64,000 bases of DNA from an uncultured Gammaproteobacteria bacterium (GTDB taxonomy: Bacteria > Pseudomonadota > Gammaproteobacteria > Steroidobacterales > Rariloculaceae): positions 1,762 to 65,761 of the forward strand of contig CAZKNH010000005.1 in the NCBI GenBank assembly GCA_964553875.1, read 5' to 3'. Below the pieces are notes generated by a model. That model did no database searches. It was not told the origin of the DNA and saw nothing but the letters and a program-made list of their open reading frames with translations. This document shows, one piece after another, positions 2,752 to 49,469 of this stretch; the first letter of the stretch is position 1, and the number at the start of each line of letters is the position of its first letter. The position numbers and the translations under genes were made by a program.

Positions 2752-2767
2752 AAATCGAGGTTTCAAC

Positions 2768-18132: not shown

Positions 18133-18144
18133 GGAACCTCGAAG

Positions 18145-33502: not shown

Positions 33503-34369
33503 ATGACAAAGCTTAAAGCTCTTTGCTACCTCTTCATTGCAGGCATTCTCGGGCCGGCATGCGCAAACGCCGACGATTACTTCAACTGGCTGAAGGCGCG
33601 GTCCGAGACGATTCTCGCTCGCGGCTACCAATCGCAAGCCGAGATCGATGCCGACATCAACGCGTCCAATCCGTCGAACCGGGTCCGACCGCCCGTCTAC
33701 GACTCGACCGTGAAAGGCGCGCGTTGGACGATTCCGGCCGGGCAGGCGAGCGTCGCTATCCAGGACCAGCTGCGCCCGCACTTCGGCACGGTATCGAGCG
33801 GCAACTTGTTGCTGGTGTGGGAAGCGCGGTGGGATTCCGCGTTCGCGGGCAACCTCGGCGGGCTCGAGACGCACAAGGCATTCCAGCTGGCATCCGGCAA
33901 TTCCGGAGACCAGCGTCGCATCGAGATTCGCACGCGATTCAGCCTCGCGCCGAGCAACGCCGTGGCGATGGTCGACGCCCGCGGGTACGTCTGGAATCCG
34001 TCGGGTCAGCCGCTCGCCGGCCAGACGGGCAGCTTCACGATCAGGCCCAACAAGTGGACCCGCTTCTGGGCGTTCCTCGACTTCAACGCGAGAACCTTCT
34101 CGCTGTGGGTCGCGGACGAGGACACGAAGCCGGTGCGGCTCTTCAACAAGCTGCAGTACTCGAACATGAGCGGCGGCCTCGATCACTTCTGGTTCGAGTT
34201 CAACTCGAGCCAGGAGAGGGGCGGCGGCAGCGCGTTGACGGTCTGGGGACGGAATTTCGCCGCGCTGCGCAACGTCTCCGACGTCGAATCGATCGTCAAC
34301 CGGGGCGCCGTCGAGCCGGGCGAGGAAGAGGTGCTGCCGCGTCCGCCGGCCAACCTCTCGGTGCAGTAA
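33503..34369 (+). CDS. secreted hypothetical protein
   Basis: 288 aa. Signal-like MTKLKALCYLFIAGILGPACANA. I recognise no family; beta-rich composition. A terminator-like hairpin follows. Confidence 0.6.
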   Translation: MTKLKALCYLFIAGILGPACANADDYFNWLKARSETILARGYQSQAEIDADINASNPSNRVRPPVYDSTVKGARWTIPAGQASVAIQDQLRPHFGTVSSGNLLLVWEARWDSAFAGNLGGLETHKAFQLASGNSGDQRRIEIRTRFSLAPSNAVAMVDARGYVWNPSGQPLAGQTGSFTIRPNKWTRFWAFLDFNARTFSLWVADEDTKPVRLFNKLQYSNMSGGLDHFWFEFNSSQERGGGSALTVWGRNFAALRNVSDVESIVNRGAVEPGEEEVLPRPPANLSVQ

Positions 34370-34712: not shown

Positions 34713-35492
34713 ATGATCATCAGCCACAAGCACCGCTTCGTCTTCGTGGAGGTGCCGCACACTGCGTCTCATTCGATCGCCGAGCAACTGATCAAGCACT
34801 ATGGCGGTCAACCGATTCTCCGCAAGCATTCGAATATCACGCAGTTCCTCGGCCAGGCGAGCCCGGAGGAGCGCCGCTACTTCAAGTTCGCGACCGTCCG
34901 GAATCCGCTCGACACCGCTACGACCGATTACGCGAAGCTCGCCGGCAACCATCGCGGGCAATTCACGAATCCGGCCATGCTGATCGAGAACGGCGGGCAC
35001 GTGACGAAGGACCATCTGCGCGAGTTCAACTTCATCCGTGACCACAACGCCGATTTCCCGACCTTCTTCAAGAAGTTTCGCAACAAGCTGTACAACAACT
35101 GGTTCCTCATCGGCGATCGACACTATCAGCAGATCATCCGATTCGAGCAGCTGCAGGAAGACTTCTCGAGCGTGCTCGAGAACATCGGGATCGAGCAGGT
35201 CGAGCCGATTCCGCACGTGAATCGCACGGTCGCGAAGCGGAAGCACTACACGGAGTTCTATACGCCGGACACGTACGCGCAGGCGGCACGCTGCTACGGC
35301 CCGTTCATGAAGAAGTGGCGATACGAGTTTCCCGCAGAGTGGGGACCGATCGAAGTGCCGAGGTCGAGCGAGCTCCAGTTCAAGCTGATCGACGGCTGCG
35401 CGCAGGCCCTCGCGAGCCGCTTCACGCTCGATCCGGACAACCCCGCTCTGCACCGGATCAAGAAGTTCGTCGACACGCTCACGCGGGGATAG
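34713..35492 (+). CDS. sulfotransferase (family-2-like)
   Basis: 259 aa. FVFVEVPHTASHSI (5'-PSB-like loop) and FATVRNPLD (3'-PB-like RNP motif). Noticeably lower G+C than its neighbours in the stretches I counted. Confidence 0.65.
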   Translation: MIISHKHRFVFVEVPHTASHSIAEQLIKHYGGQPILRKHSNITQFLGQASPEERRYFKFATVRNPLDTATTDYAKLAGNHRGQFTNPAMLIENGGHVTKDHLREFNFIRDHNADFPTFFKKFRNKLYNNWFLIGDRHYQQIIRFEQLQEDFSSVLENIGIEQVEPIPHVNRTVAKRKHYTEFYTPDTYAQAARCYGPFMKKWRYEFPAEWGPIEVPRSSELQFKLIDGCAQALASRFTLDPDNPALHRIKKFVDTLTRG

Positions 35493-35529: not shown

Positions 35530-36513
35530 ATGCTCCGAGCCCTTGCAGCGACTTCAGCTCTGTTCCTCGCCTCGCTGGCCGCGCTCGCGACCGTCCTGCT
35601 GCCGGCCACCGACCTGACGCGCTTCCGAAACTCGCTGCTCGCGGAGGTCGGCGAGCCCTCTGACTTCGAGTGGATGCCGGGCGCCTATCCCGCCGACTTC
35701 AAGCTCGAGTCGGTCCCTCCGCCCGATGAGATCCTTGCCGCCGTCGACGCGATCCGCGTGCGCTCGCAGAACGCACAGCAGCTGATGACGGGCTTCGTGG
35801 AGCACCTGCGCTCGAAACCGAAGAGGCGCGGACCGATTCAATCGACGACGCTCCACGCCTATCGGGAAATCATCGAGCAGGGACGCGGCTACTGCGCGGA
35901 CTACACGCAGGTCTTCAACGGCCTCGCGCACACGGCCGGCCTGCCGGTGCGGGAATGGGGGATGTCGTTCGACGGCTTCGGCGGCGACGGCCACGCGTTC
36001 AACGAGGTCTACGACGAATCTCTCGGTCAATGGATATTCGTCGATCCGATGAACGGCTTCTACGTGCGCGACCGCGCGAGCGGCCGGCCGCTCTCGGCCC
36101 TCGAGTTCCGCGAGCGAACGACGCGAGCCGACGGCTTCGAGACGATCACGATCGAGCGTATCGTCGAGAACTTCCTCTTCCCGTCCGACCGGGCCGCGTT
36201 CGATTACTATGCGCGCGGCGCAGACCAGCTTTACCTCTGGTTCGGGAACAACGTCTTCGCCTACGACGCTCATCCGGCGGTTCGCGCGCTGTCGTGGTCG
36301 CGCGCCCTGGAAGGGCTCGCCGCCATCGCGCTCGGCGTCCATCCGGAGATTCGCATCTATCCGACCGAATCGAACGCCGAGATGATCGAGTCGCTGCTCC
36401 GGCTGCCCTACTACGTCTTCGGACTCACGACGCTGACGGCCCTGCTCGGGCTGTTGCTGCTGGTGCAGCTATTCGTCGCCGTACGCCGACGGCGACGCCC
36501 GCTCGCCGCCTGA
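35530..36513 (+). CDS. membrane-bracketed transglutaminase-like (Cys-His-Asp) protein
   Basis: 327 aa. N-terminal TM; GRGYCADYTQVFNGLAHTAGLPVR ... GDGHAFNEVY ... WIFVDPMNG (classic TGase-core order). C-terminal TM plus LFVAVRRRRRPLAA. Confidence 0.6.
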   Translation: MLRALAATSALFLASLAALATVLLPATDLTRFRNSLLAEVGEPSDFEWMPGAYPADFKLESVPPPDEILAAVDAIRVRSQNAQQLMTGFVEHLRSKPKRRGPIQSTTLHAYREIIEQGRGYCADYTQVFNGLAHTAGLPVREWGMSFDGFGGDGHAFNEVYDESLGQWIFVDPMNGFYVRDRASGRPLSALEFRERTTRADGFETITIERIVENFLFPSDRAAFDYYARGADQLYLWFGNNVFAYDAHPAVRALSWSRALEGLAAIALGVHPEIRIYPTESNAEMIESLLRLPYYVFGLTTLTALLGLLLLVQLFVAVRRRRRPLAA

Positions 36514-37776
36514 GCTTGAGTGCGTCGGCCTGCGCGCGGCGTCCGTGACGATCTGCCTGAGCAACGCGGACAACCGTAGCGTCTGCCTGCGCCGGGAGTA
36601 CTGCTCGAGCACGGCCGTCTCGGGCAGACGGTACTCCCCGGAGCGCACGTCGAGCAGAAAGCGCTCGAGGCGCGCGGCGATATCGGCTGCATCGTCGATG
36701 CGCGCCGTGCTGCCGATTCCGATCTCGTTCAGCACGCGCTGCGTCTCGCCGCGTTCGTCGACGAGCGCGAAGATGGGTCTCCGGGCGAACAGGTACTCGT
36801 AGATCTTCGCCGGCACCGCGTGGTTGTACGCGGTCCCCTGGAAGAGCAGCAGGCCGTCGGCCTCGACCATCTCGCGGATGGCCTGCTCGTAGGGGAGGTA
36901 CGCCCCGAGCTCGACCAAGTCCGCCACTCCATGGCGTTCGGCGAGCTCGCCGTATCGCCCCTCGAACGCGCTCGCGCGGAGCACGACTCGGAGCGTCGAT
37001 GCATCGACCTTGCCGCGGTCCTTCAGCATCCTCAACGCTTCGAAGAACGACGCCGGATTGCGCCCCTCGGGCTGCAGCGCGCCGCTGTGGACGAGCGTCA
37101 GTCGAGCTCCGTCGCCGGTCCGGGTCGCGGAGGTATCGGGATAGTTCGCCTCGTCGTAGCCGTTCGGAATGAGCTCCGTTCTCCCGACGAGCTCCGGATA
37201 GCGCTCCTCGTAGTCCTTGCGCGTGTACTCCGACGTGAACACCACGGTGCGCGCGGCCGCGACGGTCTTCCGCTCCACCCAACGTGCCCAGCGAAAGCGC
37301 ATCGGATCCCGCGGATACCCTTCGAGCGTGATCGGGTCGCGCAAGTCCGCGACCCACGGCAGGCCGCTCCAGCGCGCGAGCGTAAACGCGACCAGGTTCG
37401 TCGTCGTGATCGGAAAGGTCGACCAGATGATCTTCGGCCGGTAGCGCCGGATCAGCCGCATGCCGCTGAGCACGGCCGCCGGCCACCAGCTCACCCACGG
37501 ATCCGGCCACGCCAGGCAGCCCGGATAGCGGCCCTTGATCGCGAAATGCCGCCTCGCATCGAGGCCGAAGGCCCGGTGCACCGGCACGTCGGCGGGAATC
37601 TCGCCGAGCTGGCCAGGATGGGACTTCGCATACGCGCGCGGATGAACGGTCAGAACGGCCGGACGCCAGCCGTCCTCGCGCAGGTACCGCACGACTTTCA
37701 GCGCGCGCTGCACGCCGCTGCTGGTCGCGATCGGCGGGAAGTGGAAGGCGACGATCAGGATCGAATCGTTCGTCAT
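36469..37776 (-). CDS. glycosyltransferase family 4-like (GT-B)
   Basis: ATG at 37776 preceded by GAGGA (alternative ATG at 37842). MTNDSILIVAFHFPPIATSSGVQRALKVVRYL. The last 45 nt overlap the convergent gene. Confidence 0.7.
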   Translation of the reverse strand: MTNDSILIVAFHFPPIATSSGVQRALKVVRYLREDGWRPAVLTVHPRAYAKSHPGQLGEIPADVPVHRAFGLDARRHFAIKGRYPGCLAWPDPWVSWWPAAVLSGMRLIRRYRPKIIWSTFPITTTNLVAFTLARWSGLPWVADLRDPITLEGYPRDPMRFRWARWVERKTVAAARTVVFTSEYTRKDYEERYPELVGRTELIPNGYDEANYPDTSATRTGDGARLTLVHSGALQPEGRNPASFFEALRMLKDRGKVDASTLRVVLRASAFEGRYGELAERHGVADLVELGAYLPYEQAIREMVEADGLLLFQGTAYNHAVPAKIYEYLFARRPIFALVDERGETQRVLNEIGIGSTARIDDAADIAARLERFLLDVRSGEYRLPETAVLEQYSRRRQTLRLSALLRQIVTDAARRPTHSSSGGERASPSAYGDE

Positions 37777-37822
37777 TGCGCCAAGGTCCTCGGCCGTCGC
37801 CCGAGCTTCCGATGCCGGCTCG

Positions 37823-38932
37823 TCAACCGTACGCATCGGCATCCGAGTCGCCGTGGGTCAGGAACCAGCTCTCCGGGCGCAGGAGCTCCGGGAACTGCTC
37901 GCCTTCGCCGCCCGCCGCGAGCAGGAAGTGAAAGCGCGGCTCGCGCCGCGCGAAACCGAGACGCTCGAGCACGTCCGTCAACGCCGGGCTCCATGTGTGA
38001 CACGTGACGGTCTGAGCGCCGTGCCGCTGCAAGCTCGTCACCGCGGCGTCGACCAGCATCGAGACGTAGTCCGGGCGATCGAGCGGCACCACGAGATCCA
38101 CGAGAAAGCCGCGTCGATAGGGATACACGTCGGTCGGCTCGCGGAGCATCGTCACGACGACGCCGACCAGCTCCCCGCGGTCTCGCATCTCGATCCGCAT
38201 GAACGCCGCGAACGGCCGGTCGACGTACTTCCAGTTCAGGTACGACGCATCGCGAACGACGGCGCACGCGCACGTGGCCGCCATCCGCTTCCACAACGCA
38301 TCGTGCTCGGCCGTGAATCGATCGACGCTCGCGAACGTCACGTCCTGCGACGGCACGTGCCGTCCGCGCCTGCGGCGCAGCCCGTGCAGGAGCGCGAGGC
38401 CCGCGGCCGCCGCCTCCGCGGCACCGGCGGGCAACTTGTGTCGCAGATTCATCCGGTAGCCGCTGACGAACACGTGATGCGCAAGCGAGCAGACCTGGCG
38501 CCAGCCGAGCGCGAACTGCAGCTCGCGCATCTGCGCGGTCTGACCGAGCGACAGGTTGAGCGGCAGATCCTCGAGCGCCTTCTTGATCAGCATCGGGCCG
38601 ATCGGCGAGCCGCGCACTGCCTGGCCCGCCATCGTCTCGACGAACCAGCCGGTCACGAGCTCCTTGCCGCTCACGTGCAACCGCACCGGGAGCGCGCCCT
38701 GGTGCGCGACGACCTCGCCCTTTCTCAGATACAGCCAGACGAGCGGCGCGATTCCGAGCCGCTCGGCCGACGCGACGAACATCCAGCGCCACCTGCCTGG
38801 AATGGTCTGCGGCAATCGGTCCGGGTATTCCTTGCGCTGGAACTCGAACACCGCCTCCTCGAGCTCCGCTCGGTAGCCGAAGATTCCGCGGGCTTCGCCG
38901 AGCGGCGCTCGGCTGGACGGCTGCTCGTTCAC
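37823..38932 (-). CDS. GNAT-like acyltransferase (two-lobed)
   Basis: GTG at 38932, 26 nt after the upstream stop. C-terminal lobe GELVGVVVTMLRE...GFLVDLVVP...LVDAAVTSLQRHGAQTV...LERLGF has GNAT character. The call is by pattern only. Confidence 0.45.
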   Translation of the reverse strand: MNEQPSSRAPLGEARGIFGYRAELEEAVFEFQRKEYPDRLPQTIPGRWRWMFVASAERLGIAPLVWLYLRKGEVVAHQGALPVRLHVSGKELVTGWFVETMAGQAVRGSPIGPMLIKKALEDLPLNLSLGQTAQMRELQFALGWRQVCSLAHHVFVSGYRMNLRHKLPAGAAEAAAAGLALLHGLRRRRGRHVPSQDVTFASVDRFTAEHDALWKRMAATCACAVVRDASYLNWKYVDRPFAAFMRIEMRDRGELVGVVVTMLREPTDVYPYRRGFLVDLVVPLDRPDYVSMLVDAAVTSLQRHGAQTVTCHTWSPALTDVLERLGFARREPRFHFLLAAGGEGEQFPELLRPESWFLTHGDSDADAYG

Positions 38933-38958
38933 GGGTGCGCCTCGAGCATCGGTCGCAG

Positions 38959-39705
38959 TCAAAAGCGTAGACCGCCGTCGAGCTCGAGCACTCGGCCGGC
39001 AAAGTAGTCGTTCTCGCAGATGAACCGCACGCCGGCCACGAGCTCTTCGGGAGTCGCGAACCGGCCGACGGTGGAGCCGCTCCGGATCCGCTCGCGAAAG
39101 AGCGGCGGGATCTTGCTCGTCATGCCGGTCTCGGCGAATCCGTAGGCGATCGCGGCCACCCTGATGCCGTACACCGCGAGCTCCTGCGACCACGTCACCG
39201 TCAGCGCATCGATCGCTGCTTTGGACGCGGCATACGCGCTCTGGCCGGCGTTCCCGGCGCGGACCACCGACGAGGTGTTGATGATGACGCCTTTGTGCCG
39301 GGTCTCGAGCCAGCGCGCGGCCACCTCGCGCGCAACCAGGAACGTTCCGGTCAGGTTGCTCGCGAGCGTCGCCGACCAGTCCTCGATCGAATGCTTCTTC
39401 ACGCGCTTGCCGAGCCGCGAAACCAGGGTCTGATCGCGCAGCACGGCCGCGTTGTTCAGCACGATATCGATCGTCCCCGCATCCGCGAACACCTCGGCGA
39501 CGGCCGCCTCGACTTGCGCGGGATCGCTCACGTCGCAGCGGAGGAAGCGCGCGCCGGGCACGGCGGCTCGAGCCGTCTCGAGCGCCTGCTCGTCATTGTC
39601 GAGGCCCCAGACACGGGTGCCGCAGGCGGAGAACTGCGTCACGCAGGCGAGCCCGACTCCGGACGCCGCCCCGGTCACGAGCATGCCTGCCTGCGCGAGC
39701 TTCAT
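38959..39705 (-). CDS. SDR oxidoreductase, 3-oxoacyl-ACP reductase (FabG)-like
   Basis: 248 aa. TGAASGVGLA, NNAA, SSV...YAASKAA catalytic pattern. Confidence 0.85.
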   Translation of the reverse strand: MKLAQAGMLVTGAASGVGLACVTQFSACGTRVWGLDNDEQALETARAAVPGARFLRCDVSDPAQVEAAVAEVFADAGTIDIVLNNAAVLRDQTLVSRLGKRVKKHSIEDWSATLASNLTGTFLVAREVAARWLETRHKGVIINTSSVVRAGNAGQSAYAASKAAIDALTVTWSQELAVYGIRVAAIAYGFAETGMTSKIPPLFRERIRSGSTVGRFATPEELVAGVRFICENDYFAGRVLELDGGLRF

Positions 39706-39947
39706 TGAGCGGCAGCCCCGGCCTTCTCGAGCAGCGCGACGATATCCGCGATCGACTCGACCTCGATCGCGTCCTCGACCGGTATGTGCGTGCCGAAATG
39801 CTGCTGGATCGCCGACATCAGCGCCACGTGGCCCAGCGAGTCCCAGCCGTTGATGTCGCCCGGGCCCGTGTCATCCGTGAGCTGGCTCTCGCTGCATTGG
39901 AACAGGTTCGCCATGAGTGACTTCAGTTGCTTTCCGATATCTGACAT
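39702..39947 (-). CDS. acyl carrier protein
   Basis: 81 aa at the 3' end of track ORF 39702..40721. MSDIGKQLKSLMANLF...INGWDSLGHVALMSAIQQHFG carries a DSL-type phosphopantetheine Ser motif. ATGA overlap with the SDR start. Confidence 0.8.
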   Translation of the reverse strand: MSDIGKQLKSLMANLFQCSESQLTDDTGPGDINGWDSLGHVALMSAIQQHFGTHIPVEDAIEVESIADIVALLEKAGAAAQ

Positions 39948-39973
39948 CTGTTGGATCCATCGGTGAACGGGAA

Positions 39974-41242
39974 CTAGTCGCCTGGATCGGTGCGAACCAC
40001 CGACCGCGTGAGCCTCGACACGAGGCCCACGCCGTCCCAGGGATTCTCGAAGTGGTTGCCCTCGCCCGGCGCCGGGAAGCGGCACACGCCGAGATGCGCC
40101 GCGTGCTCGGTGAACTGCTCCGCGTCCGCAGGCCCGAGCCGCGTGACCACCGTTTGCACGTTGCGCGGGATATGCGGATAGACGTCCTCGACGCGCTCGA
40201 ACGGGATGACCTGAACGAAGCGATTCGCGCAGTCGAGCGTCGTGCTCGGGGCGTCGGCGGCGACCACGGTCCAGTCGGTGCGCGCGTCGTGGAACACGTC
40301 GCAACCGTCGAGCAACGCCCGCGCCCGGTCGAGCACGATTCGGTAGGTCTCGCCGAAGTCGAGCGCGTGGCGCGGGTAGGTCTTGCTCTGCTGGGCGAAG
40401 GCGGCGTTGAAAGCTTCGAGGAAAGCGGTGAAGCCGGCCGATCCGCGTGCGCCTTTCACGAAAATGTGCTGCGGCGAGCTGCAGGCGAGCTGATCGAACA
40501 CGGCGACGTCGGTCGCGAGCCGCCGGATGCCGCCCGCGTCGATGAATGCCGGATCGACGACGGCGAGGCTGAAGCGCGGACCGAAGATGACGTCCTCGCA
40601 GTGCCAGCCGGCCGGCAGGTCGCGGATCGCGTCGACGGCCTCCCGGCCGCCCCACGCGATGCGGACATCGGCCGCCCGGCTCATCGCCTCGTGGGCCTCG
40701 CGGTTGTGCCGATCGAACCACACCACCTGCGTCTCGTCGGCCATCCTCGCTCCGGCCTCGGAAACTCCATGCAGCGCATCGAGCAGCGGCGACAGCACGT
40801 CACCCTGCCGGGCGCTCAGTCTGATGAAATTGCGGTTGCCGAGCACGGCGGACATCGCCCACGAGAACACTGCAAGCAGCGGAACATTGCCCGCGACCCA
40901 GTGGCAGACGAGCCCCTTCGGCACCGTGCGAAGGCTCTTGCGCGCGTTGATCCGGACGAACCCCGACAACGAGTCGACGTCTTTCAGCTCGCGCGCGATC
41001 TGCCCGAGCAGGAAGTCGCTGTCGAGGAACGAGGCCAGGAAGGCGAGCCCCTCGCGGGGCAGCTTGTCCCGCAGCCCGGATCCCGGCGCGAGGATCATTC
41101 TCGACAGCTCGCCGAGCGCGCTCAATCGGCCGCGAAAATCGACGGGCCCTGCTCCGCCGTGCGCCGAAAGCTTCGCGAGCGAGTCCTCGATGCTTCGGGC
41201 CGCCGACGGCGCCGGATACGCGAACTCAACGGCGGACGACAT
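39974..41242 (-). CDS. LuxC-family acyl-CoA/acyl-protein reductase
   Basis: 422 aa. VCHWVAGNVPLLAVFSW, IAWGGREAV and FDQLACSSPQHIFV are arranged as in LuxC-type reductases. Confidence 0.75.
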   Translation of the reverse strand: MSSAVEFAYPAPSAARSIEDSLAKLSAHGGAGPVDFRGRLSALGELSRMILAPGSGLRDKLPREGLAFLASFLDSDFLLGQIARELKDVDSLSGFVRINARKSLRTVPKGLVCHWVAGNVPLLAVFSWAMSAVLGNRNFIRLSARQGDVLSPLLDALHGVSEAGARMADETQVVWFDRHNREAHEAMSRAADVRIAWGGREAVDAIRDLPAGWHCEDVIFGPRFSLAVVDPAFIDAGGIRRLATDVAVFDQLACSSPQHIFVKGARGSAGFTAFLEAFNAAFAQQSKTYPRHALDFGETYRIVLDRARALLDGCDVFHDARTDWTVVAADAPSTTLDCANRFVQVIPFERVEDVYPHIPRNVQTVVTRLGPADAEQFTEHAAHLGVCRFPAPGEGNHFENPWDGVGLVSRLTRSVVRTDPGD

Positions 41243-42326
41243 CGCTGCAACCCCTGAGCTCCGATTTCGGCGCGCGGCCCTGAAAGACGAACGCCGTCCC
41301 TCTGCGGCCGCATGGGCAGCCGTCCACCCGCTCGATCCGGCCGATGTCCTCCGTCAGCACGCTGTGATTTGGGCTCGCGAGCGGCAATGTGCTGATCAGC
41401 TGAATCAGGCCCGGCTCCCCGGGCTCGGCCGTATCGAGCGTGTCGGCGCGCCGGATCAGCACTTCCGCCCAGTACGGCACGTGCTTCACGCCCTCCGGGC
41501 AATCGGGATAGGCAAGCCCCACCTGCTCCACCATCCCGTAGAAGTCGATCACCCTGTCCGGCGGCAGCCCCCACACGCCGGCGACGGTGCGGTTGAACGT
41601 GCTCTTGTCGACGGCGAGGTCTTGAAGCCTTTTCCATCCGCCGCTGTGCAGGAGCACGGAGCCCGGATGTGCGGGCGCCGGCGCGAAGTCGGCGAGCGCA
41701 ACGTGCGCCTGGTAGAGGATATAGGTGAAGCCGTACGCGATGAACGGCCGTCCCGCGATCTTGTCGAGCGCGGCCGCGAGCGCGTTCCGATCGAGCTCGA
41801 GCCTGTCCGCGGTCTGGCGCATCACGAAGTGGAACTCGGTCGCAAGATGTGCAACCGCGAGAATCGCGGCGCCGCGGGCGCTGAAGCCGTTGCTGCCCCG
41901 GACGGTCGCCTCGGTGTCGAACACGAGATAGGGCCGCCGCTCCTCGCCGATGAAGTCGCTCAGAATCGCGTTCGCGCTGCGCGCCTGCCGACGGCGGCTC
42001 TCCTTGTCGACGAAAATCTTCGATGCGTTGGCCGAGGTCGTCGCGGAGGATTGCACGACGGACACGTCGTCGTTGCGCGACCGAAGCTCGTACTCCTTGA
42101 ACAGCGACACCGGCAGAAACGGATAGCGCTCGATGAACGGGGTGCCGGCCGGCGCGGTCCTTTCCGCGTCTTCGACGAGCGCTGCATAACCCTCGCAGCG
42201 CTGCCGGTGATACTCGCGCAAGGCCGTGAGCCGCTCCTCGAGGAAGCGAGCTTTGTCCTCCGCGCTCATGGCGTACGGCCGCACGCCCGGCACGAAGGGA
42301 TCGAGATTCATCGCCGTCGCCTGCAT
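41226..42326 (-). CDS. LuxE-family acyl-protein synthetase
   Basis: 366 aa. FLPVSLFKEYELRS, VQSSATTS, LLHSGGWKRL and FYGMVEQ are typical of LuxE-like adenylating enzymes. 17-nt overlap with the luxC-like start. Confidence 0.75.
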   Translation of the reverse strand: MQATAMNLDPFVPGVRPYAMSAEDKARFLEERLTALREYHRQRCEGYAALVEDAERTAPAGTPFIERYPFLPVSLFKEYELRSRNDDVSVVQSSATTSANASKIFVDKESRRRQARSANAILSDFIGEERRPYLVFDTEATVRGSNGFSARGAAILAVAHLATEFHFVMRQTADRLELDRNALAAALDKIAGRPFIAYGFTYILYQAHVALADFAPAPAHPGSVLLHSGGWKRLQDLAVDKSTFNRTVAGVWGLPPDRVIDFYGMVEQVGLAYPDCPEGVKHVPYWAEVLIRRADTLDTAEPGEPGLIQLISTLPLASPNHSVLTEDIGRIERVDGCPCGRRGTAFVFQGRAPKSELRGCSDVVRR

Positions 42327-42330
42327 CTCT

Positions 42331-43755
42331 TCACACTATCTCTCGAATCACGCGCTCCGGATCGTTCGGCGACAGCAGCGCGCGCTGCAGCTTGCCGTTT
42401 GCCGTGAGCGGAAAGCTCCGCACCTCGAAGTAGCGGACCGGCACTTTCACCGGTGCGAGCCGCGCGCGCAGGAACTCCGTCAGCGTCTGACGATCGACCG
42501 GACGTCGAAGCTCGACGTACGCGGCCGGTATCTGCCCCCGCTGCGGGTCGTCGAGACCGCCGACCGCGCTCGCGATCACGTCCTCGTGCTCGGCCAGCGC
42601 GCGCTCGACCTCGAGCGGCGACACCTTCTCCCCTCCGACCTTCAGCATCTCGTCGCGGCGGCCGAGGAGATAGATATAGCCGCCGCTGATGCGCGCGATG
42701 TCTCCGGACAAGACCGAGCCGTCGGGGAGGAACGCACGACGCGTGCTCTCCGGATCGTTCAGGTAGCCCTTGACGATACTCGGCCCCCGGATCGCGAGAA
42801 TGCCTTCCTCGCCCTCGCCCTTCACGGAGAAATCCCGCTCGTCGACGACGAACACCTCGAGCCCTTCGATCGGCGTGCCGCAGGTCGGCTCGGCGAAGCG
42901 CGGGTCGTCGTCGCGAATGTAGGAAATGCGCGGTGTGGCCTCCGTCATTCCATAGTTGTCGAAGAATCGGGCGTTCGGAAAGATCTCTTTCACCGTAGGC
43001 AGAAGCTGCCTGTCCATCGCAGCGCCGGCCGAGCATAGCACCCGCACCGACGGCATCGACAGCGGCGTGAGCCGATGCAACGTGCACAGGGAATGATAGG
43101 TCGACGGGACGCCGCAGAACGTCAGCAGGCCCTCCGCTTCCACGGCTCTCGCGAGCTTGATCGGGTTGCGGAAATTGTCGAACAGCCGCACCGTGCCGCC
43201 GACGTAGAACATGTAGAGCACCTGCGTGAGCAGCGCGTAGCTGTAATGCAACGGCAAGACGACCGCGGCGCTCGGATTCGCGGCGTAGTCGAGGTAACCC
43301 GTGATCGCCCTCGCCGAATGCGTCAGATTCTCCGCGGACATCGGCACGCCTTTCGGGGTGCCGCTCGTGCCTGATGTGAAGATGACGAGCTCGGGCAGCG
43401 CCGGGTCGCGCTCCGGCAACCGGCCTTCCCCCTCCTCCGTTTGCGCGTCGAGATCCAGTCGGACGCTGTCGCCGCAGCGCCGCGCGATCTCCTGCACGAC
43501 GCGTTCGGGCGCCTGCGCATCGATCGGGACGGGCACGTTGCCGCTGATCGACGCGGCGAGCAACGTGCGCACGAAGCGAACGCTTCTCTCGGCCGGAATT
43601 AGCAGGAAGCGGCCGGCGCCGTGCACACGCCGCAGCGCACGCGCCTGGGCGAGCGAGCGTGCGAGAAGCTCGCCGTACGTGAGCCGCTCGCCGTCGTCGG
43701 CGATGGCCGGTGCCGAGGGCCTCGCACGCTCGACCCAGGAGGCGAAAAGGCTCAT
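42331..43755 (-). CDS. AMP-dependent synthetase/ligase (adenylate-forming)
   Basis: Real start MSLFASWVERA at 43755; the track ORF to 44838 is an artefact. Has FTSGTSGTPKG, NYGMTE, GDIA and GKLQR motifs. Confidence 0.85.
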   Translation of the reverse strand: MSLFASWVERARPSAPAIADDGERLTYGELLARSLAQARALRRVHGAGRFLLIPAERSVRFVRTLLAASISGNVPVPIDAQAPERVVQEIARRCGDSVRLDLDAQTEEGEGRLPERDPALPELVIFTSGTSGTPKGVPMSAENLTHSARAITGYLDYAANPSAAVVLPLHYSYALLTQVLYMFYVGGTVRLFDNFRNPIKLARAVEAEGLLTFCGVPSTYHSLCTLHRLTPLSMPSVRVLCSAGAAMDRQLLPTVKEIFPNARFFDNYGMTEATPRISYIRDDDPRFAEPTCGTPIEGLEVFVVDERDFSVKGEGEEGILAIRGPSIVKGYLNDPESTRRAFLPDGSVLSGDIARISGGYIYLLGRRDEMLKVGGEKVSPLEVERALAEHEDVIASAVGGLDDPQRGQIPAAYVELRRPVDRQTLTEFLRARLAPVKVPVRYFEVRSFPLTANGKLQRALLSPNDPERVIREIV

Positions 43756-44891
43756 CCCTGCGCTACCCTGGCGGCCACGGTATCCACGAAGGCGAGCAGG
43801 TCCTCCTCCGACGCGCGCCGCGGGTTCGATCGGATGGCGACGTCGGCCGCCATTCGAGTCGCGATCTCCCGGCGGTAGCCCGCGTCCGAGGCGAGGCGAG
43901 CTGCCACGGGGTGAGTCGCGACCGATTCGAGTGCCTGGTCGACGATCGGCCGAATGCGCTCGACCAGAGCGTCCACGCCGTCGAGCTGCAACCGCTCGAG
44001 CAACGTCTGCATCTGCGGAGTGGTTGCGTTGAACTCGAGCCCGGTGACGAGCGCACAGCCGTTCGCGAGACCGTGCCCCATTCCGTCCACGCCCACCGCA
44101 TGCGCGAAGGCGTGAACGATCCCGACGGAGCAGTTCGCCGCGGCGACGCCGCCGAGAAACCCGGCCTCCATCAGTCGATCGTTCCGGCTTGCGCTGGGCG
44201 GCAGCGGGTACGCGTCGATCACGGCGCTCAGCGCGGCCGCGGCGGTCTCCTTCGCGAGGCGCAGCGGCACGATCGACAGATACGCCTCGAGCGAATGGCT
44301 GAGCGCGTCGCACAGAAACTGCGCGAGCGCCCGCGGAGCGACGCTCTCGAGGAATCGACCGTCGAGCACCACCCTGTCGGCGAGGAAGGCGCGGGTCACG
44401 ACCGCTCGCTTCGATCCCGCCGCGGACTGGTAAACAGCGACGTCGGCGGCCTCTGCGCCCGTTCCGCACGTCGTCGGCACGAGGCAGAGGTGCGGCCGGG
44501 ATTGCGCCGCGAGCGCCTGATCGACGACGCCGGTCGAGAGGTCGAGCACGCCTGCAGCGTGCGCCCATGCAAGGCGAGCCCAGTCGAGCACCGAGCCGCC
44601 GCCGACCGCGACGATGCGCCCCGCCGGCCTGCCGCGCAGCAACTCCGCGCCAAGACGGATCGCGGCCTCGGTCGGCTCGCCGTCCGGTTTCGCGACGTGA
44701 TTCGCCGGCGTCAGCGAAACGTCGCGGCGCGAGAGCGCTTCGCCGAGCAGGTCGAGAACGGGCCGGCTGCCGCTCGTCAAGAAAACGGTCGATTCGTCGA
44801 CATGATCCGCGAGCGAGCGGAGCGATCCGCTGCCGCATACGACGGCGGGCGCGTGACGGAACTCGGGGTAGCTGAGCTTCAGTTTCGCCAT
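43752..44891 (-). CDS. iron-containing (group III) alcohol dehydrogenase family protein
   Basis: Start MAKLKLSYPEF at 44891. Has AVGGGSVLDWAR, VPTTCGTGAE and HAFAHAVG. ATGA overlap with the ligase start. Confidence 0.75.
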   Translation of the reverse strand: MAKLKLSYPEFRHAPAVVCGSGSLRSLADHVDESTVFLTSGSRPVLDLLGEALSRRDVSLTPANHVAKPDGEPTEAAIRLGAELLRGRPAGRIVAVGGGSVLDWARLAWAHAAGVLDLSTGVVDQALAAQSRPHLCLVPTTCGTGAEAADVAVYQSAAGSKRAVVTRAFLADRVVLDGRFLESVAPRALAQFLCDALSHSLEAYLSIVPLRLAKETAAAALSAVIDAYPLPPSASRNDRLMEAGFLGGVAAANCSVGIVHAFAHAVGVDGMGHGLANGCALVTGLEFNATTPQMQTLLERLQLDGVDALVERIRPIVDQALESVATHPVAARLASDAGYRREIATRMAADVAIRSNPRRASEEDLLAFVDTVAARVAQG

Positions 44892-45257
44892 AGGGGCGTC
44901 ATCGTACCAAGCGAGCCGTCCGCGGAGCGTGACGGCGTCTAATGATCGCGAGCCGCAACGCGCCGGCAAAGCCCCGAAGGGCCCGACGGCTCTCCGCCGA
45001 CCGTTCTCGCGGTGCTCGCGGCCGCAGCTGCCGTCCCCGGCATACCGCGGCGGGCCCCGAGGCGGCAAGCGCGGTCTGCACCGATCAGTGGACGGCGGAG
45101 GCCGGGAATCGCATTCGCTCCGTCCTTGTTATGATTCGATGCCGCGGAGGTCGAGCCGGTCATCGCGACTCGCGAAACCGAGGTGTGAGTCACGCTCGAC
45201 CGCCCCACTCGACTCTACGATACGCACGTCGTCGCCCCGCCCACCGCCGGAAGCCGC

Positions 45258-46349
45258 ATGGTCAGCGCTCCAACCAAGACGTCTACGCCGGCTGATCGAG
45301 CCCGAACCGCCTCGCGGCCGGTATTCATCGTAGGCTGTCCGCGCTCGGGCACGACCTGGCTCTATCACATTCTTCTCTCGGCGGGCCGATTCGCGATATA
45401 TCGTTCCGAGACGAACATTTATAACTCATTTGCGCCGGCTTACGGGGACTTTGCGAACGTTCGGACGCGGGCCGCATTCCTGCGCAAGTGGCTCCGCAGC
45501 GAATACTTTCTGAGATCCGGCCTCGACGCCGACGCGTTCCATTCGAAGGCGATGGAGCGCGGCACGGGGCCCGGTGCGATGCTGCGGCTCTTGATGGAAG
45601 AGATCTGCGCATATCAGCACGCGGAGCGCTGGGCCGAGTGCACGCCCGAGCACGCGCTCTCGCTCGCCCGGATCAAACGCGACTTCCCCGAGGCGCTCTT
45701 CATCCACATCGTGCGCGACGGTCGGGATGTCGCGTTGTCGTTGGCGAAGCAACGGTTCATTCGGCCGCTGCCATGGCACTCGGACCAAGGCGAGCTCGCC
45801 GCCGCGGCGTACTGGACCTGGATCGTGGCGGCGGCGACGCGTCAGGCTGAGGCCTTTCCGAGCGATGTGCTCGTGCTCAAGTACGAAGACCTGGTGACGG
45901 ACTACGTGGGCGCGCTCGAGATCGTCTCGGCGTTCATCGGCCAACGCATCGACGTCGCGAAGGTGGCCGATGCGGGGATCGGCAGCGTCGCACGACCGAA
46001 CACGTCGTTCGCCGCGCAGAACGGCGCGGCGGCGCCGCAGACGGTCGGCCGATGGCGGACGGAGCTCTCCCCCGAGCGATTGGGCGCGCTCGAGGCCGTG
46101 GTCGGCCCAATGCTCGATCGCTTCGGCTATTCGCGCGGCGCGCCGGCGGCGTCGGCGCCGGCCGCACGGCTCAATGCCGCGCTGTACAAGGCACGTTTCG
46201 GCGCGATGTGGCGCTTGAGGACATCCACGCCGCTCGGGCGTTTCGGTGACGACCGTCTGAGCCGCCTGACGGTGAAAGACGCCGTCGACGATCCCACGCT
46301 CCGCCCGGCGGCGCACCTCGCTGCGATCCGGCGCATCATCGAAGGCTGA
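45258..46349 (+). CDS. sulfotransferase (PAPS-dependent, PRSGTT type)
   Basis: 363 aa. FIVGCPRSGTTWL (5'-PSB) and IHIVRDGRDVALS (3'-PB). Confidence 0.7.
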   Translation: MVSAPTKTSTPADRARTASRPVFIVGCPRSGTTWLYHILLSAGRFAIYRSETNIYNSFAPAYGDFANVRTRAAFLRKWLRSEYFLRSGLDADAFHSKAMERGTGPGAMLRLLMEEICAYQHAERWAECTPEHALSLARIKRDFPEALFIHIVRDGRDVALSLAKQRFIRPLPWHSDQGELAAAAYWTWIVAAATRQAEAFPSDVLVLKYEDLVTDYVGALEIVSAFIGQRIDVAKVADAGIGSVARPNTSFAAQNGAAAPQTVGRWRTELSPERLGALEAVVGPMLDRFGYSRGAPAASAPAARLNAALYKARFGAMWRLRTSTPLGRFGDDRLSRLTVKDAVDDPTLRPAAHLAAIRRIIEG

Positions 46350-46368: not shown

Positions 46369-47535
46369 TCAGTCCGTGGACGACAGCGCTCCGACGGGCT
46401 GACGCCGACACACCGCCCGCTCGTACAGCGCCCGATACTGGTCGATCATCGCCTCGACGGAAAAGCGCCCGACCGCCGCGGCGCGCGCGGCGGCACCGTG
46501 CCGCGCCCTCCGCACGTCGTCGCTCGCGTACGCGACGACGGCATCCGCCAAGGCCTCGCTGTCGCCCGGCGGCACGAGCGTGCCCGTCTCGCCCGGCGTG
46601 ATCAGCTCGGGATTGCCGCCCGTCGCGGTCGCGATCACCGGCAGGCCCGACGCCATCGCCTCGAGTACGGTGTTCGAGATCCCTTCGCGCAGCGAGCCGA
46701 GCACGAAGACGTCCATGCATCGCAGAAGCTCCGCGACGTCATCGCGGCTTCCCGGCAGCCACGCGTCGTCGGCGGCTCCTGCCGCGCGCAGCCGCTCGAG
46801 CGCGGCGTCGCGCAGCTCGCCGTCGCCGATCATCAGCAACCGCAACGGCCGCCGGGCGCCTTGCAGCCTCTCGCGCGCACGGATGAACGCCTCGACCAGA
46901 TTCAACGGATCCTTGATCGCCGCGAAGCGCGTGACGCTGCCGACGACGAGCGCCCCTTCGGGGAACACCGCTTCCGGGAGCCGGCGCCGCTCGCCGAGTC
47001 CGGCGGGGCGAAAACGCGCGGTGTCGACGCCGTTGCAGATTCGCGTGACGTTGTTCGCACGAATGCCCACGGTCTCGATGAGCCATCGTCTGAGATGCTC
47101 CGAGACCGTCACGAATTCGTGCACGAACGGCGCGAACGCGCGCCGGGCGATCCGGTACCTCGCTTTCGTGCCGTCCGGGTCGGCGACGTCCCAGCCGTGC
47201 TCCCCGTGTATGCGCACCGGCACGCCCGCGAGCGCGGCAACGACGGCGCAGTCGAGCGTGCCGAAGTTGCGCGTATGCACCGCGCTTGGGCGCAGGGTCC
47301 GGAGCAGCCGGAAGAGCCGCGCGTACGCGCCGAGATCGCGCCCCGGGCGCTTGCCGATCGCGTGAACGGCGATGTCGGGATGCAGACGCTCGCGAAACCG
47401 GGTCGCTTCCGTCAGCGCGATCACGGCGTGCCGGAATGCGCCCTGCCCGTGGAGCCCGTTCACGACGTTGACCACACCGTTCTCGAGGCCGCCGTAGTCG
47501 AGACGGAAAACGATGTGCGCGATCAACGGTGTCAT
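46369..47535 (-). CDS. glycosyltransferase family 1 (PEP-CTERM/EpsH1-associated 'stp2'-like)
   Basis: Real start MTPLIAHIVFRLDYGGLENGVVNVVNGL at 47535 (ATGA overlap with the asnB stop). Has SLREGISNTVLEAMASGLPVIATATGGNPELI. Track ORF 46369..49467 is an out-of-frame over-extension. Confidence 0.8.
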   Translation of the reverse strand: MTPLIAHIVFRLDYGGLENGVVNVVNGLHGQGAFRHAVIALTEATRFRERLHPDIAVHAIGKRPGRDLGAYARLFRLLRTLRPSAVHTRNFGTLDCAVVAALAGVPVRIHGEHGWDVADPDGTKARYRIARRAFAPFVHEFVTVSEHLRRWLIETVGIRANNVTRICNGVDTARFRPAGLGERRRLPEAVFPEGALVVGSVTRFAAIKDPLNLVEAFIRARERLQGARRPLRLLMIGDGELRDAALERLRAAGAADDAWLPGSRDDVAELLRCMDVFVLGSLREGISNTVLEAMASGLPVIATATGGNPELITPGETGTLVPPGDSEALADAVVAYASDDVRRARHGAAARAAAVGRFSVEAMIDQYRALYERAVCRRQPVGALSSTD

Positions 47536-49469
47536 GCCGCCAGGCTGCTCTCCGCGAGCTCCGCCGCGACGTCCTCGTGGCTCGCGCCGTCGAGGTGCAA
47601 CCGGCTCCAAATCTCGAGATTCAGCAGCACGAGAAGCAGGTCGGAATAGTCCTCGCGGCTCGCGTCGTGCGCATTGCAGATCGTCTCGACGACGCCCGGA
47701 TCGAGCAGCCCCCGCGCCGCGACGACGCGCGGATCGAGAAGCTTGCGCCGCAGCGGCACGAGCTCCTGCCGGAACCATGCACCCACCGGCGCACCGAAGC
47801 CGCGCTTCCGTCTTTCGAGCACCGGCCGCGGCAACACGTCGCGGAGCGCGTCCTTCAGGATCGCCTTCAGGCGCCCGTTGGGGGCCTTGATCTCGGCCGG
47901 GATGCTCGCCACGAGCTCGACCAGACGATGATCCAGGAACGGCACGCGGCATTCGATCGAGCACGCCATCGTCATCTTGTCCGTCATGAGGAGCAGATCC
48001 TCCGAGAGCTGCGTGCGCCAGTCGACGCGCAGCAATCTCAGAAGCTCGTCCGTGCTCGTCTCCTCGCCGACGACCGCATCGAAGCCGTCGGTCGGAGGAC
48101 CGTTCCGTGCGCGCTGCAGCGCCGCGAGCACCGCCTCGTCCGCGAGCGCGATGTACAGCTTGTACTGCTGCCGCCAGTCGAGGCCGTTCGCGCGGATGAA
48201 GCGCTTCGCGTAACGCCCGAGATCCATGAGCCGGTTCTGCCGGCCGCTCGGCAGCGCTCGCGCAAGGAGCGGCAGCACGCGCCGTCGGAGCCACGACGGA
48301 ATCCGCTCGTAATAGCGGCCGTAATGCGGGCCGAGGTAGCGGTTGTAGCCCGCGAAGAGCTCGTCGCCCCCTACGCCCGACAGTATGACTTTCACCGACT
48401 CGGCCGCGAGCTCCGAGACGAGGTATGTCGTCATGATGGCGCTGTCGGAGATCGGCTCCTCGAGATGCCACAAGAGCTTCGGCAAGAGGCGGGCGACGTC
48501 GGGCTGCACCGCGATCTCCCGATGCCGGCTGCCGAGCTGGTCGGCGACGAGCCGCGCGAAAGGCAGCTCGTTGTAATAGTCGGCGACCGCGCTGCCGCGG
48601 TAGCCGATGCTGTAGGTATTCAGCGCGCCGTCCGAGTGGCGTGCCATCAGGCTCACGACCGCGCTCGAGTCGATGCCGCCGCTCAGGAACGCGCCGAGCG
48701 GGACGTCGCTCACGAGATGCGATGCGACCGCCCGATCGAGCTCCGCCGCGACCCGCTCCGTCCACTCCTCGCTCGATCGCGAGCGATCGACGTCGCGCGG
48801 CGGTTCCCAGTAGCGAAAGACGCGGAGGCTGCCCCCTTCGCTCACGAGCATCGTGCCCGGCGGCAGCTTCGACACTCCGGCGAACAGCGTGCGGGGCGCG
48901 ACCGCGTAACCAAGCGCGAGATAATCCGACAGCGCCTCCGTGTCGACGGCGGCGCTGAAGCCGCTCAATGCCCGGAAAGCCTTCACCTCCGAGCTGAACG
49001 CGAAGCCGGACGCATACCGCCAGTAGTACACTGGCTTGATGCCGAGCCTGTCTCTCGCGAGGAGAAGCTTGCGGCGCGTCGAGTCCCAGAGCGCAAACCC
49101 GAACATCCCTTCGAGCCGCGTCACGAAATCCTCGCCGTGCTCCTCGTACAGATGGACCAGCACCTCCGTGTCGCTGCGCGTCGCGAACCTGTGGCCCTGC
49201 GCCTCGAGCGAGCGTCTGAGCTCGCGGAAGTTGTAGATCTCGCCGTTCATGACGACCCAGACCGAGCCGTCTTCGTTGCCGATCGGCTGATGCCCGCCTT
49301 CGAGGTCGATGATCGACAGCCTGCGCATGCCGATCACGACGTCGCCGCAATCCCTGACGCCGTCGTCGTCCGGCCCGCGGTGCCGGATCAAGTCCGCCAT
49401 GCGCCGCACGTCGTCCGGGCCGTACCGCCTGACGTCGCCGAGCTGCACCGTTCCAACGATCCCGCACAT
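47532..49469 (-). CDS. asnB: asparagine synthase (glutamine-hydrolysing) family amidotransferase
   Basis: 645 aa. [27 protein letters not shown]. Confidence 0.85.
   Translation of the reverse strand: MCGIVGTVQLGDVRRYGPDDVRRMADLIRHRGPDDDGVRDCGDVVIGMRRLSIIDLEGGHQPIGNEDGSVWVVMNGEIYNFRELRRSLEAQGHRFATRSDTEVLVHLYEEHGEDFVTRLEGMFGFALWDSTRRKLLLARDRLGIKPVYYWRYASGFAFSSEVKAFRALSGFSAAVDTEALSDYLALGYAVAPRTLFAGVSKLPPGTMLVSEGGSLRVFRYWEPPRDVDRSRSSEEWTERVAAELDRAVASHLVSDVPLGAFLSGGIDSSAVVSLMARHSDGALNTYSIGYRGSAVADYYNELPFARLVADQLGSRHREIAVQPDVARLLPKLLWHLEEPISDSAIMTTYLVSELAAESVKVILSGVGGDELFAGYNRYLGPHYGRYYERIPSWLRRRVLPLLARALPSGRQNRLMDLGRYAKRFIRANGLDWRQQYKLYIALADEAVLAALQRARNGPPTDGFDAVVGEETSTDELLRLLRVDWRTQLSEDLLLMTDKMTMACSIECRVPFLDHRLVELVASIPAEIKAPNGRLKAILKDALRDVLPRPVLERRKRGFGAPVGAWFRQELVPLRRKLLDPRVVAARGLLDPGVVETICNAHDASREDYSDLLLVLLNLEIWSRLHLDGASHEDVAAELAESSLAA

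Follow-up and report, generated by a model that had tools for sequence, protein, structure and literature searches.

In Vibrio cholerae O1, perosamine carries an N-linked 2,4-dihydroxybutanoyl (tetronate) group (PMC3441752, PMC4772473). VC0248–VC0252 are the predicted tetronate genes, O antigen depends on WbeL, a 471-aa protein that has an ATP-binding domain (PMC3441752), and RfbN is mentioned as carrying a LuxE domain in a passage of PMC4772473 that cites Morona et al. (1995, Gene 166:19). A set consisting of an acyl carrier protein (ACP), FabG, a ligase, LuxE and LuxC has been reported, without biochemistry, from the flagellin glycosylation islands of Aeromonas group II and of Enterobacteriaceae (PMC7874193, PMC4875605). 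Literature searches on rfbK-O and tetronate returned no open paper describing the pathway, only indirect citations, and no work was found linking exosortase or PEP-CTERM loci with LuxE/LuxC. Here we describe a run of eight genes at positions 36469–44891 of a 64,000-nucleotide stretch of DNA from an uncultured gammaproteobacterium (contig CAZKNH010000005.1; the window hereafter), seven of which form a conserved cassette. We read this cassette, with moderate confidence and from its genes and their arrangement, as a self-contained, carrier-protein-dependent acyl decoration system for an exopolysaccharide (EPS) of the XrtA/PEP-CTERM type.

Genomes were scanned with a LuxE alignment, one genome per GTDB species, and the best 80 loci were scored by tblastn with the window proteins and by all-against-all clustering of open reading frames (ORFs). 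More than 2757 LuxE homologues were found at E ≤ 1e-10, the best 120 of which were all at least 54% identical. A fixed order of seven genes, encoding an iron alcohol dehydrogenase (Fe-ADH), the ligase, LuxE, LuxC, the ACP, a short-chain dehydrogenase/reductase (SDR) and a Pfam-less protein of ~370 aa (here termed GNL), was present in about 20 species-level metagenome-assembled genomes (MAGs) of Gammaproteobacteria, Acidobacteriota and Planctomycetota, and its recurrence across three phyla is far beyond chance. The carriers included a 3.57-Mb gammaproteobacterial MAG and another gammaproteobacterial MAG, a Pirellulales MAG, and a Vicinamibacterales (Acidobacteriota) MAG in which the order lies 4 kb from an Exosortase_EpsH gene. 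Most seven-gene cassettes sit in exosortase-type (XrtA/PEP-CTERM) EPS loci, and in other phyla an exosortase gene or AsnB/FemAB-type genes adjoin them.

Two locus types separated cleanly among the best 80. Type A comprised 23 loci with LuxE 56–92% identical, all from MAGs of 55–69% GC assigned to Gammaproteobacteria (including Woeseiaceae), Acidobacteriota, Pirellulales and Planctomycetaceae. Among the 21 that were analysed, Fe-ADH, ligase, LuxE and LuxC were present in every one, the SDR in 20 and GNL in 18. Seven-gene order was identical in 17 type A loci; of the others, one had an asparagine-synthase gene inserted, one was rearranged, three were cut by contig ends and two (L006 and L021) had no GNL nearby. 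Type B loci had LuxE 36–46% identical and the order (SDR)-ACP-ligase-LuxE-LuxC, and their hosts were Clostridium, Acidobacteriaceae, Syntrophobacteraceae, Campylobacterales, Alteromonadales and archaea. In L028, L029, L033, L042 and L063 an Fe-ADH lay between ligase or ACP and LuxE, and the order ACP-ligase-FeADH-LuxE-LuxC was seen in the distant relatives L042 and L029. A search of a plasmid collection with LuxE returned only generically annotated type B modules, e.g. in Ponticoccus.

The last gene of the run, which encodes a GT4-type glycosyltransferase, did not share this conservation. It adjoined the cassette only in L003/L004, which are the window's own organism, and in L005, the closest MAG (88%); a 56% orthologue lay about 7 kb upstream of the cassette in L007, L010 and L011, and none was found next to the cassette in the remaining loci. 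Since GT4 is adjacent in the closest relatives only, the conserved unit is the seven genes and GT4 is a lineage-specific neighbour. The initial annotation of this DNA had described an eight-gene operon, and its order was upheld across three phyla for the first seven genes, with GT4 to be taken out.

The run itself consists of eight intact, co-directional minus-strand ORFs, as established by a GC3-based gene map, the ORF listing and inspection of each junction (Table 1). The tight packing described at the outset was exact: ATGA overlaps lie at 43752–43755 (Fe-ADH/ligase) and 39702–39705 (ACP/SDR), luxE and luxC overlap by 17 nt (41226–41242), and the remaining junctions are gaps of 4, 26, 26 and 46 nt. 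The 17-nt LuxE/LuxC overlap recurred in L001, L002 and L087, and the 4-nt Fe-ADH/ligase and ACP/SDR overlaps recurred across phyla. Such conservation is consistent with translational coupling; in the solved structure 7xc6, LuxC and LuxE are complexed. The run is bordered by a convergent gene at 35530–36513 (+) and a divergent gene at 45258–46349 (+). The only sizeable non-coding gap flanking it is the divergent intergenic region, in which we place the presumed promoter because of its position only, since a scan for the sigma-70 consensus gave no promoter-like site; terminator-like sites were at chance level. The convergent gene encodes a transglutaminase-core protein with predicted hydrophobic ends, overlaps the 3' end of the GT4 gene by 45 nt and is kept in the closest relatives (L003–L005).

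Table 1. Genes of the run and the intergenic region upstream of it (window positions).
Feature	Position	Strand	Remarks
Fe-ADH, group III iron alcohol dehydrogenase	43752–44891	-	379 aa; first cassette gene
Adenylate-forming ligase, stand-alone	42331–43755	-	474 aa
LuxE-type acyl-protein synthetase	41226–42326	-	366 aa
LuxC-type acyl-thioester reductase	39974–41242	-	422 aa
ACP	39702–39947	-	81 aa; phosphopantetheine site GWDSLGH
FabG-like classical SDR	38959–39705	-	248 aa; ATGA-coupled to ACP gene
GNL, tandem-GNAT protein	37823–38932	-	369 aa; GTG start
GT4-type glycosyltransferase	36469–37776	-	435 aa; last gene of run
Divergent intergenic region	44892–45257	.	366 bp; between Fe-ADH and sulfotransferase genes; presumed operon promoter region

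Pfam recognised seven of the eight proteins, the exception being GNL, and its significant matches, LuxE, LuxC and PP-binding among them, bear out the seven domain assignments made initially from the sequence. NCBIfam matches of the cassette proteins were all far under equivalog cut-offs, so that the NCBI curated models offer no specific name for any of them. Fe-ADH matched the Pfam families Fe-ADH (4.9e-23) and ADH_Fe_C (8.5e-13), and its GGGS motif and metal ligands D195, H199, H264 and H273 were invariant in 22/22 orthologues. LuxE (Pfam LuxE, 1.7e-50) had a single solved relative, chain E of the LuxC-LuxE complex 7xc6, with whose KGCS its C-terminal RGCS aligned, and R358-G359-C360-S361-D362 was invariant among 43 homologues. 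Similarly, DQLACSSPQ of LuxC (Pfam LuxC, 1.1e-64) aligned with DQQACFSTQ of 7xc6_A, and C254 was invariant in 22/22 orthologues. We take the aligned cysteines of both proteins to be the acylated cysteines of the lux enzymes. The ACP matched PP-binding (1.9e-7), and type A loci hold copies that are 54–96% identical at the same position. The SDR matched adh_short (9.6e-42) and KR (5.7e-11), with TGxxxGxG, S145, Y158 and K162 invariant across orthologues; its top NCBIfam match was PRK08217, a 3-ketoacyl-ACP reductase (245.7 bits vs a cut-off of 298). For GT4, the N-terminal domain alone was recognised (Glyco_trans_4_4, 1.4e-12).

The ligase matched AMP-binding (1.9e-57) and had motifs A3, A5, A7, A8 and the A10 Lys conserved. 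Among solved structures, the adenylation domains of LgrA came first (3.2e-56) and CoA ligases after them (5e-41), which suggests a carrier-protein loader. We rejected an amino-acid adenylation domain despite LgrA being the best PDB match: Ser/Ala (PLHYSYALL) stands where nonribosomal peptide synthetase A domains have the alpha-amino-binding Asp, and the substrate is thus probably a carboxylic acid and not an alpha-amino acid. Matches to oxalate- and malonyl-CoA ligases (about 1e-39) were no better than those to many other ligases, and the score against the exosortase-A ligase model TIGR03098 (186.4) was below its cut-off of 592.35.

GNL had no match among Pfam and NCBIfam models, and a profile of 110 homologues had none among PDB sequences at E ≤ 1. 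An AlphaFold2 model built on the homologue alignment (pLDDT 95.4, pTM 0.92) showed two GNAT lobes in one chain, in agreement with the two-lobed GNAT-like protein proposed by the initial annotation. By Foldseek, the model matched N-myristoyltransferases (E about 3e-14, TM about 0.53, probability 1.00) and the Eis-like GNATs 2ozg and 2hv2 (TM 0.59–0.60, probability 1.00), with 8–14% identity to its structural neighbours; a few GNL homologues showed weak matches to the acetyltransferase families PF13527 or PF00583. A paralogy with FemAB was rejected, as hhalign gave a probability of 0.2% against the XrtA FemAB protein of the window.

An exhaustive profile search of the GNL family returned 402 cluster representatives at E ≤ 1e-30 and 5028 at E ≤ 1e-10. 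Among the best 70 matches, ~30 were the extreme C-terminal domain of proteins of 600–3280 aa, and Pfam identified the large GNL-bearing proteins as type I polyketide synthases (PKSs), such as P0246 (MaoC-SDR-KS-AT-KR-ACPs-GNL) and P0247 (KS-AT-KR-ACPs-GNL). The fused domain of P0246 was 47% identical to the window GNL over 352 residues, and PKS-fused GNL is as close to the window protein as are stand-alone orthologues of other phyla. In P0232 and P0193 a ketoreductase (KR), an ACP and GNL follow one another within one reading frame. Because GNL is fused after the last PKS ACP, in the position of an off-loading domain, its acyl donor is probably a phosphopantetheinyl carrier, and the mirroring of the cassette order ACP-SDR-GNL by KR-ACP-GNL suggests a hydroxyacyl donor set by the ketoreductase. 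These fusions favour the transfer role first assigned to the GNAT-like protein. Judged from domain order, C-terminal GNL may be a so far undescribed PKS chain off-loading domain; a literature search for a PKS with a GNAT off-loading domain found nothing relevant. P0244 is a further type I PKS of the C-terminal-GNL group. The P0193 locus (L085, 1873–11359) looks like another EPS locus because of its genes for a phosphopantetheinyl transferase, a GT4, a UDP-glucose dehydrogenase and a Pel9A-like protein.

In lux biochemistry, LuxE and LuxC together act as a carboxylic acid reductase (acid + ATP + NADPH to aldehyde). The cassette has two independent carboxylate activators, LuxE and the ligase, of which a dicarboxylic substrate is the simplest explanation; it might be oxaloacetate, malate or another C4–C6 di-acid. 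From this we infer an order of steps in which LuxE would adenylate one carboxylate and then acylate its own C-terminal cysteine, LuxC would take over the thioester and reduce it to the aldehyde with NAD(P)H, and Fe-ADH would convert the aldehyde to the primary alcohol, so that the three enzymes together would turn one -COOH into -CH2OH. The ligase would activate the second carboxylate of the same molecule and tether it to the 81-aa ACP, and the SDR, whose gene always neighbours that of the ACP, would convert a keto group on the tethered chain into a hydroxyl, giving a hydroxy- or dihydroxy-acyl-ACP, e.g. dihydroxybutanoyl. A concrete option would be oxaloacetate tethered through C4, passing via malyl-ACP to 3,4-dihydroxybutanoyl-ACP. 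Finally, GNL would transfer the ACP-bound acyl group to a free amine of a sugar precursor or of a de-N-acetylated sugar in the polysaccharide; GT4, as a local neighbour only, would have no step. To our knowledge, the characterised tandem GNATs (NMT, Eis, MshD, FemX) all acylate amines, and an amine acceptor is proposed for GNL because its characterised tandem-GNAT neighbours, the N-myristoyltransferases, are N-acyltransferases. The deacetylase genes of the window and a weakly CE4-like neighbour in 11/21 loci are hints of a de-N-acetylated sugar acceptor. The carrier-protein acyl-tailoring logic of the initial annotation thus holds, and our confidence in any specific substrate is much lower than in the general mechanism.

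More tentatively, the cassette might be a horizontally spread pathway that, in three phyla, leads from a di-acid of central metabolism via an ACP-bound dihydroxy-acyl group to N-acylation of exosortase-type EPS. In this broader proposal GNL would found an ACP-dependent family of tandem-GNAT acyltransferases that also serves as a PKS off-loader linking polyketide or acyl chains covalently to polysaccharide, and the sulfotransferase that recurs beside the cassette may sulfate the new primary alcohol.

Several points weigh against acyl decoration as set out above. The V. cholerae pathway is itself based on homology and the wbeL phenotype (PMC3441752). The substrate is not readable from the sequence, the likeness of the ligase to oxalate- and malonyl-CoA ligases being unspecific, and a redundant role, or one elsewhere, is conceivable for Fe-ADH and the SDR. 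Except in L028, L029, L033, L042 and L063, type B modules have no Fe-ADH, so that the carboxylate-to-alcohol trio is not universal, and L006 and L021 hold the other six genes with no GNL nearby. In the window there is no aminotransferase or obvious amino-sugar pathway gene beside the cassette, and no phosphopantetheinyl transferase was identified. GNL, moreover, resembles N-myristoyltransferase, a user of a long acyl chain.

This last point leads to an alternative in which the cassette is a lipidation module: LuxE and LuxC would handle a long-chain fatty acid, giving a fatty aldehyde, alcohol or acyl-ACP, and GNL would supply a long acyl chain by which the polysaccharide, or a (PEP-CTERM) protein via its amino terminus, is anchored in the membrane. 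The only known activity of LuxC/LuxE is the reduction of C14 fatty acids (7xc6), and the authors who described the flagellin islands guessed a 'liposugar' (PMC7874193, PMC4875605). The cassette enzymes are not orthologues of the lux enzymes, however, as their NCBIfam scores against cut-off were 47.5/550 for LuxE and 90.6/750 for LuxC, and neither a LuxD-type thioesterase nor a fatty acid synthase gene accompanies them. A plain fatty acid would leave the second carboxylate activator, Fe-ADH and the SDR without a role, and in the only relative whose product is known, this is a C4 dihydroxy acid (PMC3441752, PMC4772473). N-myristoyltransferases, the best structural matches of GNL, resemble it at the level of fold only (9–14% identity, TM about 0.53), and Eis-like proteins fit better (TM 0.59–0.60). 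We therefore consider lipidation unlikely.

A second alternative makes the cassette a partner of the classic exosortase-A module, acylating an amine made there to yield a composite small substituent or a separate metabolite. In L088 (401–14629), genes for a 530-aa ligase, an Orn/DAP-type decarboxylase, Acetyltransf_6, an ACP and two hydrolases lead directly into the cassette in the same orientation. In L001, L008 and L012, GNL is immediately followed by a second ligase and, in at least L001 (6221–17402; L009 is the same contig as L001), then by a decarboxylase. Against such a dependence, the window, L002 (Acidobacteriota) and L087 (Planctomycetota) have the cassette with no decarboxylase or hydrolase within 10 kb, so the cassette appears to work without that module, and we regard the partnership as quite improbable. 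The third alternative, in which the tethered acyl group would be freed by LuxC in the form of an aldehyde (which Fe-ADH may take to the alcohol) for N-alkylation or acetal formation on the polymer or as a diffusible molecule, with GNL as an acetyl-CoA acetyltransferase, draws on the general lux knowledge that LuxC-family enzymes can reduce acyl thioesters directly and on the occasional weak acetyltransferase matches of GNL homologues (PF13527, PF00583), but it leaves LuxE or the ligase without a role and is at odds with the chain off-loading position of GNL at the extreme C-terminus behind PKS ACPs and with the presence of the cassette in EPS loci of three phyla, and is very improbable.

The wider window is an exopolysaccharide locus, as had been supposed, and is of the XrtA/PEP-CTERM type: at least nine NCBIfam models of the system scored above cut-off. 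These included (score/cut-off) the stp2 glycosyltransferase (467/409), FemAB (398/260), XrtA polysaccharide deacetylase (394/276), chain-length determinant (407/279), export protein (234/180), PrsK (596/300), XrtA amidotransferase (972/817) and EpsB_2 priming transferase (553/393); the tyrosine-kinase model scored just under its cut-off. For all its XrtA-system markers, the window yielded no recognisable exosortase gene. Further products encoded there are many other glycosyltransferases, two sulfotransferases, a polysaccharide lyase, a Wzy_C protein, and PIG-L and CE4 deacetylases, with three deacetylase-type genes in all.

Two asparagine-synthase-type amidotransferases are encoded, one at 20466–22403 (+; 972/817) and one at 47532–49469 (-), which at 529/817 is below the XrtA cut-off; AsnB-type genes beside or inside the cassette were also seen in L002, L007, L014 and L022. 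A sulfotransferase gene at 45258–46349 (+; Sulfotransfer_3, 1.5e-26) lies divergently upstream of the cassette and another at 34713–35492 (+; Sulfotransfer_2, 5.5e-7) further down, and in two other gammaproteobacterial MAGs a sulfotransferase gene directly follows GNL (L088, 14616–15548; L020, from about 14435). Sulfation of the EPS is possible, conceivably at the hydroxyl newly formed on the acyl group. A ~340-aa protein with the motif DTEEEFNW...HLHPW is encoded near the cassette in 11/21 type A loci, e.g. L014 (6394–7464), L019 (6170–7282), L007 (3405–4445) and eight further loci; in six of these 11 it lies directly upstream of Fe-ADH on the same strand, and a homologue is absent from the window. 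Its assignment as a deacetylase was rejected, as its CE4-type signals were sub-threshold (Pfam E 0.006, PDB 3rxz 7.6e-4, no NCBIfam match).

Elsewhere in the window, 15572–18930 (-) carries Wzm/Wzt-type ABC exporter genes and a gene for a CsaB-like pyruvyl transferase. Wzy/Wzc-type XrtA genes are present as well, and the window may encode two parallel routes of polysaccharide export. A co-directional block at 1474–5825 (+) encodes a Methyltransf_14 sugar C-methyltransferase, an epimerase/dehydratase, a DUF4910/DUF2172 aminopeptidase-like protein and a PIG-L de-N-acetylase. Five ORFs with good coding statistics had no Pfam or NCBIfam match: 51534–52847 (-), 6967–8595 (+), 33503–34369 (+), 31342–32178 (+) and 62788–63459 (-).

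Exosortase-type EPS binds the flocs, granules and biofilms of environmental bacteria, and its chemistry is almost unknown. A gene set that is fixed across phyla predicts a specific non-sugar substituent of this EPS and so offers chemists a concrete target. The same reasoning yields a testable function for the LuxE/LuxC modules of flagellin glycosylation islands and for the V. cholerae O1 tetronate genes, makers of part of a vaccine antigen, and the PKS-terminal tandem-GNAT family may be a new means of off-loading acyl groups onto an amine. The five-family core is already known (PMC7874193, PMC4875605), and a simpler relative has been tied genetically to a solved substituent; to this extent the description of the run as a candidate undescribed system has to be qualified. 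New are the fixed seven-gene variant with Fe-ADH, SDR and GNL as additions, the link between this variant and exosortase-type EPS loci of three phyla, and the recognition that GNL represents a tandem-GNAT family which has no curated model and also stands at the end of polyketide synthases.

Compared with the lux system, represented by LuxC-LuxE of Photobacterium phosphoreum (7xc6), the cassette has the same two families with both acyl-carrying cysteines kept, and the luxE/luxC gene overlap fits a stoichiometric complex. Unlike in the Lux complex, LuxE and LuxC come with an ACP, a ligase, Fe-ADH, an SDR and an acyltransferase, and no luciferase or LuxD-type family was matched among the window genes searched. 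GNL shares the two-lobed fold of N-myristoyltransferase and Eis-like proteins; its donor is probably acyl-ACP and not acyl-CoA or aminoacyl-tRNA.

The exosortase-A module (TIGR03098 ligase, PLP decarboxylase, two hydrolases and ACP) also brings an ACP and a ligase to XrtA loci, whereas the cassette has LuxE, LuxC, Fe-ADH, SDR and GNL, and no decarboxylase or hydrolase of that module was found among the window genes searched. The initial annotation was right that the module differs and is missing here, but it is no alternative to the cassette: it directly adjoins it in L088 and L001, so that the two co-occur and do not replace each other.

The flagellin-island module has the same five families contiguous in a glycan-tailoring locus. 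LuxE identity between the cassette and such modules is only 36–46%, compared with 56–92% within type A, and their order is ACP-FabG-ligase-LuxE-LuxC rather than the ligase-LuxE-LuxC-ACP-SDR seen here. The cassette adds Fe-ADH and GNL, and its context is EPS instead of flagellin or nonulosonic acid. Neither NeuB nor a flagellin gene was found among the window genes searched. Type B modules do adjoin nonulosonic-acid genes (PMC7874193): Bowmanella denitrificans (L080, 4371–16709) has one (a small GNAT, ACP, SDR, ligase, LuxE, LuxC) between the nonulosonic-acid synthase NeuB and a phosphonate set, and an Fe-ADH there was rejected as part of the module since it belongs to the phosphonate set (phosphoenolpyruvate mutase, thiamine pyrophosphate-dependent decarboxylase, LicD). 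For Aeromonas AH-3, whose island has a related module, a pseudaminic acid derivative of 376.14 Da and an unexplained moiety of 102 Da have been reported on flagellin (PMC7874193). The masses that we computed were 102.032 Da for dihydroxybutanoyl and 376.148 Da for Pse(Ac)(dihydroxybutanoyl), an agreement that we treat as numerical coincidence and not as evidence.

The V. cholerae O1 tetronate set, to which the initial annotation had likened the run, is a sound analogy given the LuxE domain of RfbN (PMC4772473) and the occurrence of VC0248–VC0252 and the 471-aa WbeL (PMC3441752). In composition, it resembles the cassette in having an ACP, a ligase (471 vs 474 aa), an Fe-ADH, LuxE/LuxC-type domains and an acyltransferase in a surface-glycan locus. 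Of these, RfbK is reportedly the ACP, RfbM the Fe-ADH and RfbO an acetyltransferase. The two systems differ in that the cassette has LuxE and LuxC as separate, translationally coupled genes, an extra FabG-like SDR, a transferase (369 aa) from a tandem-GNAT family without a curated model, and another gene order. The host locus is of XrtA-type EPS here and of perosamine O-antigen in V. cholerae, and no perosamine-synthesis family was matched among the window genes searched. The conversion of malate to 2,4-dihydroxybutanoate turns COOH into CH2OH on a di-acid, like the conversion that we propose for the cassette.

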